DNA of 64,000 nucleotides from IMG/VR virus record IMGVR_UViG_3300024513_000016, positions 1 to 64,000 of that record. One strand, written 5' to 3'. Below the pieces are notes generated by a model. It was not told the origin of the DNA. It saw only the letters and a program-made list of their open reading frames with translations, and made no database searches. The translations under genes were made by a program, and so were the position numbers. How positions within the stretch are numbered: the stretch's first letter is position 1; the number at the start of each line of letters is the position of its first letter. This stretch comes from a virus. Shown here one piece after another: positions 1 to 14,682 of this stretch.

Positions 1-24
1 AAAAAAAGACCCCTTGCAGGGTCT
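1..24 (-). terminator. Rho-independent terminator after the 466-aa gene
   Basis: Minus strand AGACCCT-GCAA-GGGGTCT followed by a T-run, 21 nt after the stop codon at 46. Confidence 0.85.
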
Positions 25-45
25 GGGGACAGTTTATGGAGTGTC

Positions 46-1446
46 TCACTGGGGCATTGGTTTTCCAGGAGTTCTACTTCTAGCAACTTGAGAATTATAT
101 CTCCTTCTTTCATCTCCAGTTGGACCTGCACCTTGTCTTGGTTGCATACCACCTACACCACGGTCAATATGAGTATCACCTTGTTTAATTTTCTCCCTCT
201 GACCTGGAGTTGTAGTTGTAAATGTCCCAGGAACTGGTTTATTTGGACCTACTCCAATATCAGTTCCAGGAATACTTAATGATGGTCTAACTTTCACTGA
301 ACCAGGAACTCCACCTTTCATAGCAATAACTTCTGCTTCGATAATTGTTTGTCTCCACTCTTCACTCATATTTGCCATAATGACTAATGCATTTTCATTA
401 GTATCTGCATATCCTTCTGCAACCAGATACTCAAGAATAACATCAAACAAATCTGGTTCATATGAATTAGCAAGATTCTTTTTACCTTGTGCAATTACCT
501 GGTCTTTAGTCATACCAGTTGCTTTCATCTTTGCGGCACCACCACCAGCAGCAAAATCATCCATTGGTTTTTTTGGTGTAGATTGCTGTTGAGCAGGTTT
601 GTTTATTCTATTTGAGAAATCTTGTTGTGCTTTTGCTTGCTTTGCTTTTTGTCCTGCATAAAGAACATCACTTACACTGCTTCCCTTTTTCAGTGCTGCT
701 TGTCCACCACCTGCTTTGAGTCCTGCATATCCACCTCTATCAGAAAATTGCTTTGAACCAATCTGATTTGAAGCATATGCATTTCTTTGGGCACTTGTAG
801 TGAAACGACTATTTGGATTTATTGCCATTTCATCAATCTCATAATCATAGTCTTGCTTCAAGACATTACCAAGAGTTTCCTTTGCCTTATCATACATTCC
901 CTGTGCTTGATTTCTTCCCCTTCTTCCACCTTCATTCTTAATAACATCACCAATAATAGGAACATTTGCACCAGGGACACTCTTTGCTTTTTCTCTGCCA
1001 ATTACCTCACCAACTCTGCCTGCAGTATCTCTAGCAGCTTTATCTAATGAACCAAGGAGTCCACCAGCAGGTTTTGGTGCTTGTGCTACTGGTCCTGTTG
1101 GTCTTGGAGTTGTTACTGGACCACCAGGAGTTCTTACAGGTCCACCAGGAGTTCTAACTTGTCCACTGCCAGTAGTTGTTGGTTTTCTATCAAATCTTGG
1201 ATCAAACCCACCTCTTGCACTTACATCTCTACTTCTTATATCTTCTTCAATTTCTTCACCTTCTGGTTCATAAGCAGCATTTTGCAGTGTTGATTTGGGA
1301 GTATATACCTTCTCTCCCTTTGGAATCATTTTTTGCAATTGATTCTTTGCATCACGGTCAGATGCACTCTTTAGAGGAACACCAATCTGCTGCTCATAAA
1401 CATTAGTATATGCTTCGTAGAGATTGCGTAAGTCTTGGGAATCCAT
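46..1446 (-). CDS. Low-complexity putative internal head/virion protein (possible polyprotein)
   Basis: Basic Gly/Pro/Lys/Arg-rich segments separated by acidic linkers (EEIEE, YEIDE, TIIEA); module DLFDVILEYLVAEGYADT..A..IM.NMSEEW recalled from cyanophage virion proteins; CTAAATA upstream. Confidence 0.6.
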   Translation of the reverse strand: MDSQDLRNLYEAYTNVYEQQIGVPLKSASDRDAKNQLQKMIPKGEKVYTPKSTLQNAAYEPEGEEIEEDIRSRDVSARGGFDPRFDRKPTTTGSGQVRTPGGPVRTPGGPVTTPRPTGPVAQAPKPAGGLLGSLDKAARDTAGRVGEVIGREKAKSVPGANVPIIGDVIKNEGGRRGRNQAQGMYDKAKETLGNVLKQDYDYEIDEMAINPNSRFTTSAQRNAYASNQIGSKQFSDRGGYAGLKAGGGQAALKKGSSVSDVLYAGQKAKQAKAQQDFSNRINKPAQQQSTPKKPMDDFAAGGGAAKMKATGMTKDQVIAQGKKNLANSYEPDLFDVILEYLVAEGYADTNENALVIMANMSEEWRQTIIEAEVIAMKGGVPGSVKVRPSLSIPGTDIGVGPNKPVPGTFTTTTPGQREKIKQGDTHIDRGVGGMQPRQGAGPTGDERRRYNSQVARSRTPGKPMPQ

Positions 1447-1462
1447 ATTTATAGTTTTTTAT

Positions 1463-2161
1463 TTATTTAGGTTTAGTCCATCCTTTATGTTGTTTTTGTT
1501 TTCCACATAAAACTCTACGAATACAACTATAATTTAAATTATTTTCAATACAAAATTTAGTAAGATTAACTTCTTCTACTATATTTCCATCTGGACTAAT
1601 AATTTTAAATTTCTTCCAAAAATGTGGTTTGGATTTTCCTTTATGTAAATCACTTAACTTTTTTCTAGTTTCTTCAGTAAAAACTTGATTTGCTCTCTTT
1701 TCTTTTATTTTTCGTTTTGCTTCTTCGGTATGCTTTATTCCAGTTCTTCCTTTTTTTATTTTTTCTATAACTTCTGGGGGTCTCTTTTTACCTATTAATG
1801 CTTTACTTATTTTCAATTTTGTTTCATCAGTAAATTTTTGAAGTGCTCTTTTTTCTTTAATTTTTTGTTTAGTTTCTTCACTCATATTACAGACACCATC
1901 ACCACCATTAGTTTTGTTCTGTAAAATTCCCATTCCCAAATCTTTCCTTCCATAAACAGAAATCATATAAATCTCGTGCTTATAGGCATTTTCTGCTGTA
2001 ATATTCTTTTTAAGAAAAATTATTCTAGATTTATCTTTCGGGGGCTTAATATCTGTTGCTTTTCTTTTATGTATTCTATTCCCACTACCTTTACCTATGT
2101 AGTAAGGTGTTCTATCTTCACGCAAATATGCATAGGTATAAAATCGGTTAGGATTTACCAT
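1463..2161 (-). CDS. Free-standing GIY-YIG homing endonuclease with NUMOD3-like DNA-binding repeats
   Basis: FYTYAYLR..YYIGKG..R, catalytic E in AYKHE, N in LQNKTNGG; repeated (S/T)EET(K/R)xK(I/L) motifs. ATG at 2161 preferred over TTG at 2185. Confidence 0.9.
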   Translation of the reverse strand: MVNPNRFYTYAYLREDRTPYYIGKGSGNRIHKRKATDIKPPKDKSRIIFLKKNITAENAYKHEIYMISVYGRKDLGMGILQNKTNGGDGVCNMSEETKQKIKEKRALQKFTDETKLKISKALIGKKRPPEVIEKIKKGRTGIKHTEEAKRKIKEKRANQVFTEETRKKLSDLHKGKSKPHFWKKFKIISPDGNIVEEVNLTKFCIENNLNYSCIRRVLCGKQKQHKGWTKPK

Positions 2162-2172
2162 TTCTACTCTTA

Positions 2173-2248
2173 AATTGGTTCGCAATAGTATTTATACAAG
2201 AAAAGGAGCATTTCTGCTCCTCCTCTACCTTAAAGATGCGAACCAATT
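2173..2248 (-). promoter_or_regulatory. Endonuclease control region: 12-bp inverted repeat enclosing a terminator hairpin and TATAAATA late promoter
   Basis: AATTGGTTCGCA (2173-2184) / TGCGAACCAATT (2237-2248); GGAGCA-GAAA-TGCTCC-TTTTCTT (2198-2220, minus); TATAAATA (2189-2196, minus). Confidence 0.75.
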
Positions 2249-2257
2249 AAGGCATTA

Positions 2258-3109
2258 CTATTTATCAACTGCTCCAGTCATTAGTCCCGTTTTGTTGCTC
2301 TTATCACTGCTTCTCTTGCCAAACACTTTCTTATAAAGTTTTGCTCTCTTTGCTACTCCAGTCTTTTGATCTTCACCAGACATCACTGCTGTTGGTTTTC
2401 CAACTACAGTCTCACCTTTCTTTGCACCTGCTCTCTTGAGATGCTTTGGAGTATCTTTTAGTGCTTGAATAAAGTTTCTACCTCTTTCCATTTGATTATC
2501 TGGGTCACCTTTTCCGACATCACTATCACGGTGCATAATATCTACAGTATGAACTGGACCTCTCTTATTAGCACCTGATTTAGAGATTTGCTTTTTCAAA
2601 TCCTTTACTCTTCTTACACTTTCACTTGAAGGTGCAGTTTTCAATCTAGTCATTCCAGTTGGAGTTTTTCCTGCTGTTTTGAACTTACGGATTAACTGTT
2701 CTCCCTTTGCTGCTTTTCTTGCTGATGCGTGAGTACGAATGTAATGATCCTGCTCGGTGCTGCCATAATCATCTTCAGTATCTTCACTATCATAAGTTGT
2801 GTAGTCTTTTGCTTTGGTTCTCAAATCTTTGGTGGAATACTTACCAGTTCCTTTGAGTCCTGCTTTCTTTGCAATCGCAGCAGTAGATCTTTCTTGCCTT
2901 GTCATATCAGCACCACGACCACGAGCAAGAGTTACCTTGCCTCGTGTTCTTCTACCACTTCTTTCACCAGTTGAACTCTCTTCAAGTTCTTCAATATCTT
3001 CTTTCACACAACGATTATAAGTCTTCCCAAAGAGTTTTTGTGTCCCTTTCTTCTTATAACCAGGCCAGCACTTTTTTGCTTCAGAAATAAATTCCTGATA
3101 TGTCTTCAT
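2258..3109 (-). CDS. Basic putative internal head protein with T4-type capsid-targeting leader
   Basis: Starts MKTYQEFISEA (T4 IPIII leader is MKTYQEFIAE); CWPGY...NRCVKE mini-module; very K/R-rich. Confidence 0.7.
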   Translation of the reverse strand: MKTYQEFISEAKKCWPGYKKKGTQKLFGKTYNRCVKEDIEELEESSTGERSGRRTRGKVTLARGRGADMTRQERSTAAIAKKAGLKGTGKYSTKDLRTKAKDYTTYDSEDTEDDYGSTEQDHYIRTHASARKAAKGEQLIRKFKTAGKTPTGMTRLKTAPSSESVRRVKDLKKQISKSGANKRGPVHTVDIMHRDSDVGKGDPDNQMERGRNFIQALKDTPKHLKRAGAKKGETVVGKPTAVMSGEDQKTGVAKRAKLYKKVFGKRSSDKSNKTGLMTGAVDK

Positions 3110-3579
3110 TGTCCACCACCCATTGAACGTGATCTTTGTGCTCTCTTCAATGCAACTTTATATTCTGGGGATGGACCTGAACCAATAGGTCTTTCTCCTT
3201 TTTCTCTCTTTGCTCTTTCTATTTTTTGTTGTTCCAACTTACCAACACCTCTCTTTCTTCCAGGTGCTTCTGCACCACTTCCACCACCTCCATGTGCATG
3301 TCTCTTATAAGTTCCAAGAACTTCATAACGAGAAGCATAGGGATTAGTTGCAGTGTCAATCATCCCTTGTTTAGTTCTACCTAATGATGCTTCACGAGAT
3401 ACAGTTTTCTTTTCTGACTTTTTTAATTTCCACTTTGTATCACTACCTTCAGGTTGTCTTTCAACTCTAGCAGACTTTACAGTTGTATAAAGAGGAGTCT
3501 TTTTCTTTCCAGCAACTTTATCTTCTTTACGCATTTCGTAAAGATGTGCTTCTTCTAGAAACTCTTTAAAGGTCTTCAT
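3106..3579 (-). CDS. Basic putative internal head protein with capsid-targeting-like leader
   Basis: Starts MKTFKEFLEEAHLYE; K/R-rich; ATAAATA at 3600-3606. Confidence 0.65.
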   Translation of the reverse strand: MKTFKEFLEEAHLYEMRKEDKVAGKKKTPLYTTVKSARVERQPEGSDTKWKLKKSEKKTVSREASLGRTKQGMIDTATNPYASRYEVLGTYKRHAHGGGGSGAEAPGRKRGVGKLEQQKIERAKREKGERPIGSGPSPEYKVALKRAQRSRSMGGGQ

Positions 3580-3606
3580 CTTTTTATAACTTTTATTTTT
3601 ATTTAT

Positions 3607-4626
3607 CTAGGATTTTGCTTTTGCTTTTTTCTTTTGTCTTCTCACTGCTGCAGAAAGAAGTTCTTTATGAGGAATTGAACCAGAAACAATATCTTTTGTT
3701 TTTGATTCTATTTCATGTGCTCCACCCTTTCTATGATAAATTCCAGGTTTATCTGAAGGATCAGTAGATCTCTTAGCACCCATTATATTTCTTGGATGAT
3801 GTCCATGATAAACCCCTTGCGAAGCATCTTTTTTTACTCGTTCTTTCCACTCTGCATCACTCATAGATGACTTCAATTTTGAAGAATAATGTAGTGGAGT
3901 AATATGATGTGCTTCTAATCCTTTAGACTTCAATTTTCTTATTTTAGTATCTGCAGTTCTTCTTTCTTCACTCGAACTTAAATTTTCAATTCTTTCTTTT
4001 CTTCTTCCTCTTTCACCTACACCTCCAGATTTAGGTTTAAGTCTCCATTTTGGATTTTCAGTGCTGCCAGCATTATTAGCATAATAACCTGATGGAATCC
4101 CACCATGATGTTTTTCTAATTCAGATCTACTTGAAAAATATCTCTGTGCTTCAATTAAATATACTTCTTCAAAAAACTCTTTAAATGTTTTTTTCTTATT
4201 TCCCCAATTCTTTGCTCCTACTTTTCTACACTTAACTAATGCTCCAGAAGCATAAGCACTTGGCCATACACTATAACGAGATTTTACTTTATGATAACAT
4301 GCATCTTTTTCTTCAGTTGCAACCATTTTTGCTTTCCCTCTCTTATTTGGGTCTGGATCTTGACGATTCTTACGTTCAAAAGCTTTCTGCTCTTCTTCAT
4401 CAGAAAGTGCTGCTTTCATCTTGCTAGAACCACACTTCGGTTTTGTAGTTTGTCCTGGTTGTTTTGCACAAGGTTTTCCTGCATATCTTCCACCCAACTG
4501 AACCCAACCAGGTTTACCATCTGATGACTTACTTTTAGTAAACCAATCATGAAGAGAATAATCTCCAGATTTTCTACCTTCATAGATATTATCAAAATCT
4601 AAAAAAAACTCTCTAAAACCTTTCAT
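3607..4626 (-). CDS. Putative internal head protein fused to a C-terminal HNH-like domain
   Basis: MKGFREFF start; modules SLHDWF..GWV..PCA and KDACYHKVKSRY.VWPSAYASGALVKCRK; internal KKTFKEFFEEVYLIEA; then EAHHITP...HHPRN...YH...H; CTAAATA at 4646-4652. Confidence 0.6.
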   Translation of the reverse strand: MKGFREFFLDFDNIYEGRKSGDYSLHDWFTKSKSSDGKPGWVQLGGRYAGKPCAKQPGQTTKPKCGSSKMKAALSDEEEQKAFERKNRQDPDPNKRGKAKMVATEEKDACYHKVKSRYSVWPSAYASGALVKCRKVGAKNWGNKKKTFKEFFEEVYLIEAQRYFSSRSELEKHHGGIPSGYYANNAGSTENPKWRLKPKSGGVGERGRRKERIENLSSSEERRTADTKIRKLKSKGLEAHHITPLHYSSKLKSSMSDAEWKERVKKDASQGVYHGHHPRNIMGAKRSTDPSDKPGIYHRKGGAHEIESKTKDIVSGSIPHKELLSAAVRRQKKKAKAKS

Positions 4627-4648
4627 ATTCTAATATCTTTTAAAATAT

Positions 4649-4813
4649 TTAGTAATTTGTAGGTTTTTCTTGATTTGAATAATCTCCTTTTCCAACAAGG
4701 GACTGGACAAATAATTCAGTAAATTTTTCCATTTTATCTGGATGTACTGATGCTGGATTGTATGAAATTGCATCCTTAAGTGCTACAAGTTCTTCCCAAT
4801 CGTTGTTTTTCAT
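4649..4813 (-). CDS. Small hypothetical protein (54 aa, MKNNDWEELVALKDAISYNPASVHP...), not in ORF track
   Basis: Translated by hand; fills the intergenic gap; CTAAATA at 4844-4850. Confidence 0.65.
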   Translation of the reverse strand: MKNNDWEELVALKDAISYNPASVHPDKMEKFTELFVQSLVGKGDYSNQEKPTNY

Positions 4814-4913
4814 TTTTGTCAGGGTTTCAAAACATTCCTACTATATTTAGAACAAAATCATAGAAATTGCAAGGGTTTTAGAGGGGTTTAACAATCTCTA
4901 AAGATTTTAAAAA

Positions 4914-5228
4914 TCATTCAAAATTGATAATTTCTTGATTCTGATAAAATTCCCATAATGCATTATGTAAATTTGAGAGATCCATAATCCAAAATCCTTG
5001 GGGATAAATTCCTAATTCTTTCTGCAATTGTCTATGTGAACAACCAGATTTCTCTGCTTCACATGCGATTTCAATTACTGCTTGAACTGCAGAAAACCTA
5101 TCCTCATCTGATAGATTTTTATACCACTCTAAAGATTTTTCCCTACGTTCTTTTATCAAATTTTGCAAATTTTCTAGGTTTTTTTCAACCTTCTCTATAA
5201 CTTCAACTTTAGATTCAGAGTCCATCAT
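4914..5228 (-). CDS. Hypothetical protein
   Basis: ORF coupled to upstream gene. Confidence 0.7.
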   Translation of the reverse strand: MMDSESKVEVIEKVEKNLENLQNLIKERREKSLEWYKNLSDEDRFSAVQAVIEIACEAEKSGCSHRQLQKELGIYPQGFWIMDLSNLHNALWEFYQNQEIINFE

Positions 5229-5452
5229 TAGAAAATTCCTCCAAAGAAATCCTTTCCATCTTTGCTACTAAATTTTTCTTCAACTTTATCCATAAATTTA
5301 TCAGTTTTAATCAAAGAATCGATTCTATAAATAAGATCCGAAATTTCTCTGGAAACAAAAGGTTTTTCTTGCCTTGCAGCATATGCTAATGCATTTCTTA
5401 GACATTGTTCTGCTTCCTTTAGTGATCCTTCTACTGATTGGGAAAGTGCCAT
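5228..5452 (-). CDS. Hypothetical protein (conserved cyanophage type)
   Basis: Coupled ORF, MALSQSVE.SL.EA...LRNALA.AAR.E. Confidence 0.75.
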   Translation of the reverse strand: MALSQSVEGSLKEAEQCLRNALAYAARQEKPFVSREISDLIYRIDSLIKTDKFMDKVEEKFSSKDGKDFFGGIF

Positions 5453-5724
5453 TATTCCATTCTCCGATAATGATTTTGCAATACTTCAATTAATCTAGCA
5501 GTAATTTCTTTATTTAACAAGATTTCTGAAAATGCTCCAGAATTATAACTAGATCTTTTACCTAAAATATAGTTAAAAGCATACTTTAACCTATTCCAAA
5601 ACCCAACATCAGACAAATGAACTTCTACATATAGATCATTATAATCTTCATCATCATCGAAAGAAGTAATAATAAATTGATGATCTACACTACCACAAGA
5701 ACATACAAACAATTCTTGTTTCAT
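5452..5724 (-). CDS. Hypothetical protein with CxC..H motif
   Basis: Coupled ORF, FVCSCGSVDH. Confidence 0.7.
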   Translation of the reverse strand: MKQELFVCSCGSVDHQFIITSFDDDEDYNDLYVEVHLSDVGFWNRLKYAFNYILGKRSSYNSGAFSEILLNKEITARLIEVLQNHYRRME

Positions 5725-6494
5725 GATTCTTTAATCCAAAATCCATCAGCAGTCATTGTCCAACCTTCTGCAATCATTTCATCATAAGTTTTATATTTTT
5801 CAGGTTGATTATTATCTACTTTTTGAAGTTTGAATGATCCATCTCGATTATCAATCCACTCTAGAGTATCACCCTCTTTCCAACCAATTTCATTCAATAG
5901 ACTCTCGGGAAGAATAAGATTATAGTCATCGTCAATCGTCACTTTCCATTTTTTTGTTATATTTCTGCGATAATCTTTTGGTGGAAACATTTTATCAAAT
6001 TCATCATTATTTACATTTTTCCAACCAAAATGTATTTGATGTGGAGGTAATGGACTCTTAGATGCATAATCTAGTTCTACTCTTTTATTATAATATTCTG
6101 CTTCACGTAGATTATATTCTCTACATTGTTCTTTTTCTTCATCGGATGCTGCTTTATCGCACATTGCATCCAATTCTTCTTCAGTATATTGCGAGTTTGC
6201 TTTATTTAAATTGTTATTATTTTCAATAAAAGATTGTCCAGTTAGAATATCAATTCGAGTTTCTAGTGAATTTTCCAAACGATATAGTTCATTTGTCGTT
6301 GATAGGTTTTCTTCTTCAAGTACATTTACTCGATCATATAATTCCCTATTCTTATGCTCTAGACTAGAAATCCTAGTCATCAATTGATCAATAAAATCCG
6401 ACAAATTGGTCTTCTGACCAGTGATCATATCATTTATATTAACTTGATAATCTTCAATTGTATTTTCTTTTGTAAGATTTTTAATAATATTCAT
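5721..6494 (-). CDS. Coiled-coil protein with C-terminal AbrB/MazE-like DNA-binding domain
   Basis: VTIDDDYNLILPESLLNEIGWKEGDTLEW fits the swapped-hairpin AbrB pattern. Confidence 0.6.
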   Translation of the reverse strand: MNIIKNLTKENTIEDYQVNINDMITGQKTNLSDFIDQLMTRISSLEHKNRELYDRVNVLEEENLSTTNELYRLENSLETRIDILTGQSFIENNNNLNKANSQYTEEELDAMCDKAASDEEKEQCREYNLREAEYYNKRVELDYASKSPLPPHQIHFGWKNVNNDEFDKMFPPKDYRRNITKKWKVTIDDDYNLILPESLLNEIGWKEGDTLEWIDNRDGSFKLQKVDNNQPEKYKTYDEMIAEGWTMTADGFWIKES

Positions 6495-6540
6495 AATATA
6501 CGATTAGATTTTTTTACTTTAATGTTAATTAGTTAAAAAG

Positions 6541-6816
6541 TCAAGATTTTTTTACAGGAGTAACACATTCACTACAATAAGTATCTTCCAATAACTCAAC
6601 TTCATCTGATGAAACTACTGTCCATTCTCCTGATTTATCGCAAAAATGTTCCCAAATTGGAATATTTTCCGATTCCATACGACGATATTGCTTTCCTCTA
6701 TAGGGTTTAAAATAATCCCCAGTAAAATGTCTAGAAACTTCTAATTTTTGAATTTGCATAGATTCTACTATTCTTTGAAGTTCTACTATTTGTTTTTGAA
6801 TTTCTTCGATAGTCAT
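6541..6816 (-). CDS. Hypothetical protein
   Basis: ORF on the coding strand. Confidence 0.65.
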   Translation of the reverse strand: MTIEEIQKQIVELQRIVESMQIQKLEVSRHFTGDYFKPYRGKQYRRMESENIPIWEHFCDKSGEWTVVSSDEVELLEDTYCSECVTPVKKS

Positions 6817-6862
6817 AATAGTTCTTATGTGTGGTTAATACTATTTAATCTTATTAAATTTT

Positions 6863-7288
6863 TTATATAAATTGTACATTTCTAGAAAGTGTTATTCTTT
6901 TACATGATTTATCATCTTTAATAATTTCTACAAGATCTGCAAAGTAATCTTCAACCTCAGATAATCCAGAGGAACAACCATATTCCCATGCTTTTTCAAA
7001 TAATTTATTTGCTTTTGGATGATGAGTAATTTCATACTTTTTAATAAGATCACAACAAAATTCATCTTGTAATCTTTTGTTTTCTCTATGATAATGTTCC
7101 AAGTGTGTTTGATATGAAACTTCGTCTAAAACTTTTTCTTCTACACAGTTTTTTGGTGATTCAAAGTCTTCATCAAATTGTCTTTTCATTGCTACCATTA
7201 CCCCCTTTCGGTAATAATAGATGGTCATATATTTGTCTTTTGTTGGAACCGAAACTGTATTATTTTGATAACATGAATAAGGTCTCAT
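6863..7288 (-). CDS. Hypothetical protein
   Basis: ORF; HPKA.KLF.KAWE.G.SSGL.EV motif typical of phage early proteins. Confidence 0.7.
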   Translation of the reverse strand: MRPYSCYQNNTVSVPTKDKYMTIYYYRKGVMVAMKRQFDEDFESPKNCVEEKVLDEVSYQTHLEHYHRENKRLQDEFCCDLIKKYEITHHPKANKLFEKAWEYGCSSGLSEVEDYFADLVEIIKDDKSCKRITLSRNVQFI

Positions 7289-11812: not shown

Positions 11813-11990
11813 CCTCTTTATCAACATCTGCATATGCTCCCTCCACGTAAGGTCCGTGTTCTCGTTTGGCATCTTCTCTGACATAATTGATCTCCGAAGC
11901 ACTAGAGGACAACCATAAAGATACTTTCATAATCACATAAATGATTGCAAGGGGGAGAAAACATAGTGAAAGGATGATAGTATTTTTCAT
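11799..11990 (-). CDS. Small membrane protein with acidic tail
   Basis: N-terminal TM helix; ATGA overlap. Confidence 0.7.
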   Translation of the reverse strand: MKNTIILSLCFLPLAIIYVIMKVSLWLSSSASEINYVREDAKREHGPYVEGAYADVDKEDEED

Positions 11991-12187
11991 TGATTTTTTC
12001 TGTCATATTGATGCCATTTACACCAACCATCTGGTGAGATTTTACCACTTACTGCAGTGCAAGCATTTGGAGGTCTCCACATGTTACAATTGGAACATTT
12101 TTCATTTCCTTTTGGTTCATTTTGATATTTTGCAATCGATTTAGATGCTTTTTCTTCCTCGAAAAGAAATTCTTTAAATGTTTTCAT
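11987..12187 (-). CDS. High-potential iron-sulfur protein (HiPIP) domain with capsid-targeting-like leader
   Basis: YQxxPKG-x3-C31xxC34-x8-C43-xxVxGxISPxGW-C56: four cluster cysteines and conserved Y/W; N-terminus MKTFKEFLFEEE in place of a Tat signal. Confidence 0.8.
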   Translation of the reverse strand: MKTFKEFLFEEEKASKSIAKYQNEPKGNEKCSNCNMWRPPNACTAVSGKISPDGWCKWHQYDRKNQ

Positions 12188-14412: not shown

Positions 14413-14682
14413 TCACTCTGCAGCAGGCCAAATGTCCTCAGCAAGTTTTGCTTCGCCAGTTGTAATTGCAGATTGTAGATCTGAAATATCTTCTCCAGAA
14501 TTAACAATTTCTTCATCAGAAACAACAAGTTTCAGATGCCCAACATTACGTTCAATATTAGATTTTAATTCTTTAGAAGGTGTTTTTCCCCCATCTAATT
14601 TTGCAATAGTATCTTCAATCACCCAAACACTATCTCTAGCTGCAGTAATTGTTCGTAAAATTTGTTCTTGAGTTCTTTCCAT
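14413..14682 (-). CDS. Small helical hypothetical protein, last gene of the glycan cassette
   Basis: ORF abutting the sulfotransferase. Confidence 0.75.
   Translation of the reverse strand: MERTQEQILRTITAARDSVWVIEDTIAKLDGGKTPSKELKSNIERNVGHLKLVVSDEEIVNSGEDISDLQSAITTGEAKLAEDIWPAAE

Follow-up and report, generated by a model that had tools for sequence, protein, structure and literature searches.

The window analysed here, a stretch of 64,000 nucleotides, is part of an 86,447-base (86 kb) contig from an uncultured T4-like cyanophage of riverine metagenomes. A cluster of three genes encodes basic proteins of 283, 157 and 339 residues, a fourth gene for a 66-aa protein lies further along, and the cluster adjoins a homing endonuclease gene and a gene for a 466-aa protein (Table 1). 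The comparison of the contig ORFs with Syn9 and T4 by tblastn indicated a divergent T4-like cyanophage whose psbA is 89% identical to that of Syn9. With megablast, positions 1–6000 gave a single 158-base match, to S-CAM8, and nothing more, and positions 14600–36600 gave zero matches. The 86-kb fragment, for which CheckV estimates a completeness of 42%, shares 65–86% DNA identity with two relatives, G002 and the complete 247-kb genome G001.

Table 1. Genes and features at the tagged locus, in window coordinates.
Feature	Position	Strand	Remarks
466-aa neighbour	46..1446	-	different common leader, MDSQDLRNLYE/AY, ending in L-x-E
Homing endonuclease (NUMOD3, I-HmuI-like)	1463..2185	-	insertion in the cluster; Pfam NUMOD3, E 2.7e-9; phrog_314
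283-aa basic cargo	2258..3109	-	tag MKTYQEFISE (3080-3109), then C-W..G-Y-K-K..N-x-C mini-module, then basic domain
157-aa basic cargo	3106..3579	-	tag MKTFKEFLEE (3550-3579); pI 10.20
ATAAATA, T4-type late promoter core	3600..3606	-	21 nt upstream of the ATG (3579) of the 157-aa gene
339-aa two-module protein	3607..4626	-	ORF; pI 9.92
HNH-like cargo module	3610..4164	-	invariant motifs HHITP, HGH, N, H..GGAHE (alignment A1)
Internal tag KTFKEFFEE (K146-E154)	4165..4191	-	junction between the two modules; second site L-I-E159 behind
Leader MKGFREFFLDFDNIYE of the 339-aa protein, 16 residues	4579..4626	-	tag variant with Asp10, then I-Y-E16 junction, then A module
66-aa HiPIP-like protein	11987..12187	-	tag MKTFKEFLFE (12158-12187); four Cys

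The four proteins share a short leader, which an initial annotation of the DNA had already pointed out and described by the motif MK[TSG][FY]x[EQ]F[ILMF]xE. A six-frame scan of the whole contig with this motif placed ORF-initial tags at exactly four positions, 3109 (MKTYQEFISEA), 3579 (MKTFKEFLEEA), 4626 (MKGFREFFLDF) and 12187 (MKTFKEFLFEE), and the motif without Met gave one internal match in the contig, KKTFKEFFEEV at window position 4191. All five peptides that had been listed were thus recovered, and all lie on the minus, that is, the coding strand. Position 4 is F or Y, position 7 is F and position 8 is I, L or F, whereas position 10 is Glu in four of the five and Asp in the fifth. As a DNA pattern, the tag has five matches in the window versus 0.15 expected, none of 100 shuffles reached five (the maximum was two), and two permuted control patterns had 0 and 0 matches in IMG/VR; chance is ruled out by the excess in the window together with the two empty controls. 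The cargoes behind the tags have pI values of 10.05, 10.20, 9.92 and 8.98, and the three clustered ones (pI 9.9–10.2) consist of Lys plus Arg to 22–24%. Without the tag, they fall into separate BLASTP clusters, and PHROGs assigns them only to families without known function, so that their earlier description as otherwise unrelated, mostly basic proteins holds.

One of these cargoes is the 339-aa protein, in which residues 17–154 form a T4-GC119-type ‘A/B’ module and residues 155–339 a His-rich HNH-like module; its gene lies behind a fibre-like gene, with loose synteny only. The N-terminal half is 77–79% identical to Syn9 gp114, S-RIM8 gp114 and the S-P4 ‘structural protein, T4 GC0119’ (the S-P4 record note reads ‘T4 GC0119’), and tblastn found GC119-type modules in 366 phage records, with 77–79% identity over residues 11–143 among the top-listed cyanophage records. 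Judged by its sequence, the first tag of the protein, with its Asp10, most likely ends at the downstream I-Y-E16 site, and a hydrophobic-x-Glu is present two to three residues ahead of the A module in 62 of 64 occurrences, compared with 49 of 1280 random positions (3.8%). This site had been missed by the initial annotation, as had the fact that an internal tag is the common state in the HNH-like module family, in which, among the 120 relatives listed, the tag is N-terminal in 34 and internal in 76. In the alignment of this family, HH, N and H are invariant. PF13391 (HNH_2) matched 14 of 37 members, only below the cut-off (13.7 versus 21 bits; best E 0.039), and this sub-threshold match makes the C-terminal half a candidate nuclease. 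No match to the module was found among PDB sequences at E up to 10, and no relative in 50,697 phage records.

The 157-aa protein has 324 metagenomic relatives and none in cultured phages; among the 120 listed, the tag is at the start in 110 and internal in 10. For the 283-aa protein there are 666 relatives, 112 of the 120 listed beginning with the tag, and in one relative (P0272) the protein is joined to a glucosaminidase domain (PF01832). Neither the 157-aa nor the 283-aa protein matches a Pfam family. The 66-aa protein matches Pfam HIPIP (PF01355) with E 1.2e-4, and since its 22.8 bits barely pass the cut-off of 22, a redox function can be assigned as a borderline case only.

Beyond the contig, the tag was found in at least 119 stretches of IMG/VR. 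Among the matches listed, 103 unique tagged proteins formed at least 45 cargo clusters in BLASTP after removal of the first 11 residues, and the Pfam families of the listed cargoes include S-AdoMet_lyase (E 1.2e-16), ART-PolyVal (E 9.7e-24), GNAT and DUF5661. These clusters and the differing Pfam families rule out that the proteins share a homologous N-terminal domain and not a portable tag. Neighbouring genes are homologous to T4-superfamily genomes at 77 of 80 tag loci, and no T4-like neighbour was seen at the other three. In G001 and G002, as in the controls T4 and Syn9, Peptidase_S77 (gp21) scored above its cut-off, and G002 contains a further tagged gene that lies between those for the portal and gp21. 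A gp21-type protease gene was not found in the 86-kb fragment, as expected because the fragment is 42% complete. These gene contexts support an association of the tag with T4-like phages that carry a gp21-type protease. Within the 157-aa family, positions 1, 2, 3, 7 and 10 are invariant in the 110 unfiltered N-termini among the matches listed, position 4 is restricted to F or Y and position 8 to L, I or V, and positions 5, 6 and 9 vary. Of 98 tag DNAs of 33 nt, 97 are distinct; synonymous codons are used freely at every conserved residue, and the DNA upstream of these tags is not conserved. The synonymous variation indicates that it is the peptide that is conserved, and together with the diversity of the tag DNAs and the lack of a common upstream sequence it rules out a DNA-level cassette.

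The closest known counterparts of the tag are the leaders of the T4 internal proteins. IPII and IPIII of T4 begin with MKTYQEFIAEA, to which MKTYQEFISEA of the window is identical at 10 of 11 positions, and IPI begins with MKTFKEF, the first seven residues of MKTFKEFLEEA in the window. In the capsid targeting sequence (CTS) of T4, targeting is described to depend on residues 4 and 7 and processing on residues 8 and 10 (PMC9026906), and these four residues are invariant or conservatively exchanged in the 110 listed relatives of the 157-aa protein. By the criterion of sequence, the leader M-K-T-[F/Y]-x-E-F-[I/L/V/F]-x-E of each cargo is the CTS of the T4 internal proteins. Its near-identity to the T4 leaders, and its occurrence on many unrelated cargo groups in T4-like contigs, agree with the earlier view of a portable T4-type module. 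Further common traits are an aromatic residue at each of positions 4 and 7, the hydrophobic-x-Glu at positions 8–10, the basic and unrelated cargoes in a variable locus, and the gp21-type protease, found here in the relatives. In contrast to T4, the window phage infects cyanobacteria and belongs to another family, its cargoes have no similarity to the T4 internal proteins, and the window phage and its relatives place the tag also between the modules of putative polyproteins. T4 gp61.1 also begins with the tag (MKTFKEFIKED). We know of no evidence that gp61.1 is a head protein, and the motif alone may therefore not suffice.

A T4 head-loading tag of ten residues that stands before and between unrelated basic proteins suggests that these proteins are probably packed into the virion and freed there by cutting. 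We thus consider it probable that the window contains an internal-head-protein locus of an uncultured T4-like cyanophage, whose CTS-led cargoes would be packed, cut by a protease and would leave with the DNA. In analogy to T4, the leader would bind to the scaffolding core during prohead assembly, by which the cargo would become enclosed, a gp21-type prohead protease would cut after Glu10 or at a nearby hydrophobic-x-Glu site, and the basic mature proteins would stay with the DNA and exit with it at infection. The position of the tag at module junctions inside proteins points to polyproteins from which the gp21-type head protease may release the single pieces within the head; in the case of the 339-aa protein these would be the GC119-type module and the HNH-like module. 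The initial annotation had proposed an injected-effector system; the portability of the tag, its T4 type and the unrelated cargoes stand, whereas the second of the promoters named for it does not, and packaging, cutting and injection in the window phage, as well as any effector role, are what we infer by analogy.

Cultured cyanophages provide virion data, obtained by published mass spectrometry, that bear on this point. The SAM hydrolases and the NMNAT/cytidylyltransferases (T4-GC190) of cyanomyoviruses start with relaxed forms of the tag (MKDFDSFLEE, MKNFSSFLTE, MKSFLQFLKE, MKKFSAFLSE), and none of these enzymes is encoded in the window. In S-CREM2, a relaxed tag pattern has only two matches genome-wide, where ORF6 (SAM hydrolase) and ORF154 (cytidylyltransferase) begin, and both proteins are in Table 3 of the virion proteome as “non-structural” virion proteins (PMC10665884). 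ORF160, a GC119 homologue, is in this table as well. S-SCSM1 has two relaxed-tag matches, ORF91, which is a virion NMNAT, and ORF30, which is not labelled as a virion protein, and the sole match of Syn9 is a homologue of the T4-GC190 cytidylyltransferase, which is a virion protein (PMC3037559). With modest statistics, three of four tagged ORFs were detected in virions, compared with roughly one ORF in five overall. “Non-structural” enzymes are repeatedly reported from purified cyanophage particles, and the publications leave undecided whether they are real cargo or carry-over (PMC10665884, PMC9602691). In the cyanomyovirus virion papers, we found no link between a leader and the presence of enzymes in virions, and PMC10665884 nowhere uses the word ‘internal’. 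A literature search in open PMC papers and bioRxiv found no paper that describes the tag in cyanophages; the T4 CTS itself is already known, and its use by cyanophages apparently has not been described in this literature.

If the tagged proteins are packaged, they could still act as internal head proteins that condense DNA or balance its charge and not as anti-host effectors, and we regard this as the less probable but serious alternative. The high pI and the Lys plus Arg content of the three clustered cargoes would fit such a function, as would the lack of a Pfam family for the 157-aa and 283-aa proteins, and a T4 head is reported to contain about 1000 molecules of internal protein that lie within the DNA (PMC3012670). 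However, the same tag is found on enzymes (SAM lyase, ADP-ribosyltransferase, GNAT, NMNAT-like), a glucosaminidase fusion exists in one relative of the 283-aa protein, and the C-terminal half of the 339-aa protein keeps invariant His and Asn motifs that are typical of a catalytic or metal site. It is unlikely, in our view, that the motif serves the head protease only as a cut site or pro-peptide, or joins modules as a linker, and that entry into the head is determined by other parts of the proteins. An internal tag cannot serve as an N-terminal signal and may there be only a cut site, which concerns the HNH-like module in 76 of the 120 relatives listed and the 157-aa protein in 10 of 120, and a hydrophobic-x-Glu suffices at the junctions ahead of the A module. 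Yet the first 10 residues of the T4 leader alone are reported to bring foreign proteins into the head (PMC9026906), positions 2–7, which T4 needs for targeting and not for cutting, are the best conserved part here, and the unrelated cargoes have nothing else in common. That the common start is a feature of DNA or mRNA, for instance a recombination cassette or an AT-rich start that promotes translation, is very improbable, since, despite AT-rich tag codons and a variable region adjoining a homing endonuclease, tag DNAs vary synonymously throughout without conserved upstream sequence, permuted patterns of the same composition have no IMG/VR match, and the tag is conserved inside ORFs as well.

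The reading as an internal-head-protein locus can be compared with two further systems. The gene for the cyanophage T4-GC119 ‘structural protein’ (Syn9 gp114, S-P4 gp060, S-CREM2 ORF160) lies between the small and large terminase genes, and besides the similarity of the 339-aa N-terminal half to this protein, the 283-aa protein has the same C-W..G-Y-K-K module. In cultured phages, the GC119 proteins are long multi-module chains with degenerate tags only (PTYNEIFNE, GLTFQQFQE), and Syn9 and P-RSM4 have no strict tag, whereas in the window separate genes encode the modules, and every one of these genes bears a strict T4-type tag. In giant phages (phiKZ, 201phi2-1, SPN3US), gp21-like proteases cut ejection-protein polyproteins and propeptides after Glu; for many of their head proteins, cleavage is described behind the Glu of a short motif, with redundant sites in some cases (PMC9026906). 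The window also has double sites, for example F-F-E-E/V-Y-L-I-E/A (slashes mark the sites). Unlike the window phage, these giant phages lack a common decapeptide leader of the T4 type, and they use the motif S/A-x-E.

Tentatively, the T4 CTS decapeptide may be an ancient address label, nearly letter-for-letter the same from coliphages to cyanophages, that lists head-carried and DNA-delivered proteins from sequence alone. If this is true, the list of the river phage comprises several basic proteins besides a His-rich HNH-like and an iron-sulfur protein, and that of its relatives, in ready-made form, a SAM lyase, an ADP-ribosyltransferase, an acetyltransferase and enzymes of the NAD pathway, with polyproteins that are combinatorial and cut by the protease. 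The T4-type leader would then be a simple rule for which cyanophage proteins are loaded, which bears on the question of cargo or carry-over, it would allow one to read from metagenomes which proteins uncultured T4-like phages inject, and it would point to candidate counter-defence proteins. The shared leader also shows that an assembly signal of ten residues has hardly changed between branches of the T4 superfamily that lie very far apart, and it provides natural leader variants and polyprotein junctions for T4 packaging technology, which already uses the tag.

As to the expression of the locus, late promoters had been proposed at 3600–3606 and 4646–4652. The first is an exact ATAAATA, whereas the second reads CTAAATA and differs from the core. 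In the window, TATAAATA is not enriched (8 versus 9.9 expected), ATAAATA is depleted (20 versus 37 expected, 16 of the 20 being on the coding strand), and scans for sigma-70 promoters and terminators remained at background level. One polyA RNA library gave contigs with a depth of 205–669 over 2220–4919 and 30–1468 and of under 8 over 4915–7000, contig depth being a poor measure. In three RNA runs (X17, X18, X19), the depth was flat and low across the region (0–10, with single bins up to 52.6), which could be DNA carry-over, and uncovered parts of RNA runs carry no information. The RNA contig ends at 3594, 3604 and 1468 and the short T runs are not readable as transcript ends; the end at 3594 lies near the ATAAATA, which is a weak hint only. 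There is a slight indication that the tagged genes may be expressed late.

Next to the tagged cluster, the homing endonuclease is missing from the equivalent place in G001 and G002. The 466-aa gene is syntenic in relatives, and its leader heads four different proteins across G000, G001 and G002; by its sequence, this leader probably represents a second class of head-cargo leader.

The contig is that of a T4-like cyanophage, as its ORFs show when compared with whole Syn9 and T4 (tblastn): psbA is 89% identical to Syn9, gnd and replication and baseplate genes were found, and the structural genes are divergent (22-60% identity). The window covers bases 22448-86447 of the 86,447-base IMG/VR record, read on the reverse strand, no close cultured phage was found at the DNA level, and the DNA of the phage is present in riverine metagenomes from 2018-2019. 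The initial annotation had described a T4-type capsid targeting sequence (tag) heading basic, otherwise unrelated proteins. A motif scan recovered all its sites, four ORF starts and one internal, with no further match to the motif in six frames of the whole contig, and the proteins behind the tag (cargoes) are indeed basic (pI 9.0-10.2). As a DNA pattern, the tag has 5 matches against 0.15 expected, a number reached in 0 of 100 shuffles. The motif is of the T4 type residue by residue: MKTYQEFISEA of the window differs at only one of 11 positions from the start of the T4 internal head proteins IPII and IPIII (MKTYQEFIAEA), and IPI opens with the same seven residues as MKTFKEF (MKTFKEFTSTTTPVSTITEA; T4 gene sequences). 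Of the two proposed late promoters, the one at 3600-3606 stood as an exact ATAAATA, and the one at 4646-4652 did not, reading CTAAATA. T4 has another full CTS-like leader, MKTFKEFIKED, on gp61.1, a 54-aa hypothetical protein from the early primase region, and we know of no report of this protein in the head.

The tag is portable. An IMG/VR scan with the exact, back-translated tag gave at least 119 stretches, and no match was obtained with either of two permuted patterns built from these codons. At 77 of the 80 tag loci analysed among the matches listed, one or more neighbouring ORFs match T4, Syn9 or the relatives G000-G002 at E < 1e-6, and at 72 two or more do; the tagged gene itself may account for some of these matches. 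The exceptions are L038, L067 and L103. The 80 listed loci, G000-G002 and T4 hold 110 tagged ORFs (103 unique), and after removal of the first 11 residues they form 45 BLASTP clusters. A Pfam scan of 20 representatives in two sets of ten gave matches above cut-off to the S-adenosylmethionine lyase family (E 1.2e-16), ART-PolyVal (E 9.7e-24), GNAT acetyltransferases and DUF5661, and the second ten gave nothing above the cut-offs. The tag DNA has 97 distinct versions among 98, with free use of synonymous codons (AAA 56 vs AAG 42, GAA 49 vs GAG 43, four codons for Thr) and no conserved sequence upstream, so that selection acts on the tag peptide. Two further tagged proteins are nucleotidyltransferase-like with no Pfam match above cut-off, one at locus L107 (start MKTFKEFFTE, ..GH.H.. 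motif), and one in G001 (start MKSFAQFVKE) that shares 35% identity with the cytidylyltransferase homologue of Syn9.

According to a review, residues 1-10 of IPIII are enough for loading into the T4 head, targeting depends above all on residues 4 and 7 and processing on residues 8 and 10, and Asp10 blocks processing but not targeting (PMC9026906). In the 157-aa family, as judged from 110 unfiltered N-termini, positions 1, 2, 3, 7 and 10 are invariant, position 4 is F/Y, position 8 is L/I/V, and variation is found at positions 5, 6 and 9. In T4, the prohead protease gp21 cuts at (L/I)-x-E. The 339-aa protein carries the tag at a module junction, and 157 metagenomic proteins form the family of its C-half; in the best 120 of them the tag is N-terminal in 34, internal in 76 and degenerate in 10. 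The internal tag stands behind a leader segment of ~73 residues, and 10 of the 120 listed relatives of the 157-aa module also have segment plus tag in front of it; the segment is conserved (MLDEA.KRE.., an Ala-rich hydrophobic stretch, end ..ARNRKK). For the N-half, or A/B module, there are 3013 representative relatives, in which it is found at many different places within proteins 120-980 residues long. When it was located by an anchor pattern in 73 of 150 listed relatives (of the 3013), 64 occurrences had sufficient sequence upstream, and in 62 of these a hydrophobic-x-Glu preceded the module by two to three residues, compared with 49/1280 at random positions of the same proteins. Head proteases of the gp21 type cleave after Glu in a short motif (PMC9026906), and, judged from sequence, the junctions fit polyproteins that would be cut at each of them. 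Such cutting would explain the Asp10 in the first tag of the 339-aa protein, where a conserved junction, I-Y-E16↓G-R-K, follows six residues beyond.

The gp21 gene (Peptidase_S77) is absent from the 86-kb fragment, whose completeness CheckV puts at 42%, and it is present in two relatives reached via the tag: G001, a 247-kb record rated complete, and G002, a 72.6-kb fragment whose start overlaps the contig end at ~80% DNA identity. Both have the gene order internal-tag module, 157-aa family, C-W family (that of the 283-aa protein), and in G002 the stretch from the portal gene to gp21 contains one more tagged gene, of 106 aa, the product of which has a homologue in the cultured phage S-SCSM1 with the tag at its start, too. 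The NUMOD3 homing endonuclease of the window is missing from the same place in both relatives.

Virion proteomes back the tag as a putative head label, although the support is statistically modest. When whole genomes of cultured cyanophages were searched with a relaxed pattern, M-K-x-[F/Y]-x-x-F-[I/L/M/V]-x-E, S-CREM2 gave exactly two matches, at the start codons of ORF6 (S-adenosylmethionine hydrolase, MKDFDSFLEE) and ORF154 (cytidylyltransferase, MKNFSSFLTE), and both are among the six "non-structural" proteins of its 52-protein virion proteome (PMC10665884, Table 3). The same table contains ORF160, a relative of the GC119-type and C-W modules of the window (PMC10665884). S-SCSM1 also gave two matches, ORF91, an NMNAT detected in virions by the authors of that phage, and ORF30, which has no virion-protein label; three of the four tagged ORFs in these two phages (ORF6, ORF154 and ORF91) are thus virion proteins. 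The single match in Syn9 aligns as a homologue of the cytidylyltransferase T4-GC190, which was reported in S-SM1 virions (Sullivan et al., PMC3037559). The mechanism would be the one known from the T4 CTS, and the use of a single conserved CTS for a range of cargoes in T-even phages has already been proposed (PMC3012670; PMC9026906); new relative to the literature searched are the near-verbatim T4 tag in cyanophages, its position between modules of putative polyproteins, and its link to unexplained virion enzymes.

In the 339-aa protein, the N-half is T4-GC119, a "structural protein" of cyanophages (77-79% identity to the top-listed cyanophage records), and the motifs HHITP, HGH, N and H..GGAHE are invariant in the alignment of the C-half, with HNH_2 matches of the family below the Pfam threshold only. 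The 157-aa protein matches no known Pfam family, and no cultured relative of it was found; the 283-aa protein combines a small two-Cys module with a basic domain, and the 66-aa protein has a borderline HiPIP match (Pfam). The initial annotation had proposed injected effectors, and by analogy with T4 IPI (PMC3012670) and the tagged enzymes of relatives, we infer that the predicted cargoes of the window may act as such. P0272, a relative with 86% identity to the 283-aa protein, ends in a glucosaminidase domain (PF01832; FlgJ-like in the JGI naming) and, from its domains, would be a tagged cell-wall hydrolase.

Coordinates of tagged genes, their neighbours and leader-bearing proteins
Feature	Record	Position	Strand	Remark
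339-aa ORF	window	4626-3607	minus (coding)	first in transcription order
157-aa ORF	window	3579-3106	minus	second
283-aa ORF	window	3109-2258	minus	third
Homing endonuclease (NUMOD3, I-HmuI-like)	window	2185-1463	minus	fourth; between 283-aa and 466-aa genes
466-aa ORF	window	1446-46	minus	fifth; second leader
Second-leader proteins	G001	126113; 219527
Second-leader protein	G002	5225
~73-residue segment	P0011, P0092, P0106, P0124			before internal tag of HNH-like or 157-aa module
~73-residue segment	G001	215519-216313		as above
~73-residue segment	G002	1248-2123		as above
Nucleotidyltransferase-like	L107	1622-2209
Nucleotidyltransferase-like	G001	83702-84898
T4 gp61.1	NC_000866	18966-19130		locus L013, 967-1131

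In one polyA-selected aquatic RNA library, contigs with a depth of 205-669 cover 2220-4919 and 30-1468, the homing endonuclease has a depth of ~40, and 4915-7000 remains below 8; coverage of the region in three other RNA runs is low and even. Contig depth is a poor measure of transcription, and this one library gives no more than a hint that the tagged genes are strongly transcribed. In the RNA-library contig from run X15, 7 bases are missing at 4567 (codons 20-22 of the 339-aa ORF), which would shift the frame just past the first leader in that population variant. ATAAATA is depleted in the whole window (20 vs 37 expected; all 100 shuffles had 20 or more), and the coding strand has 16 of the 20, several at a short distance ahead of a gene; depletion and strand bias fit a signal that is avoided elsewhere. 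A second leader, M-D-x-Q-[D/E]-[L/F]-x-N-L-x-E↓A-Y, begins four different proteins of this phage and two relatives, and because it ends in L-x-E, it may represent another class of head-cargo propeptides.
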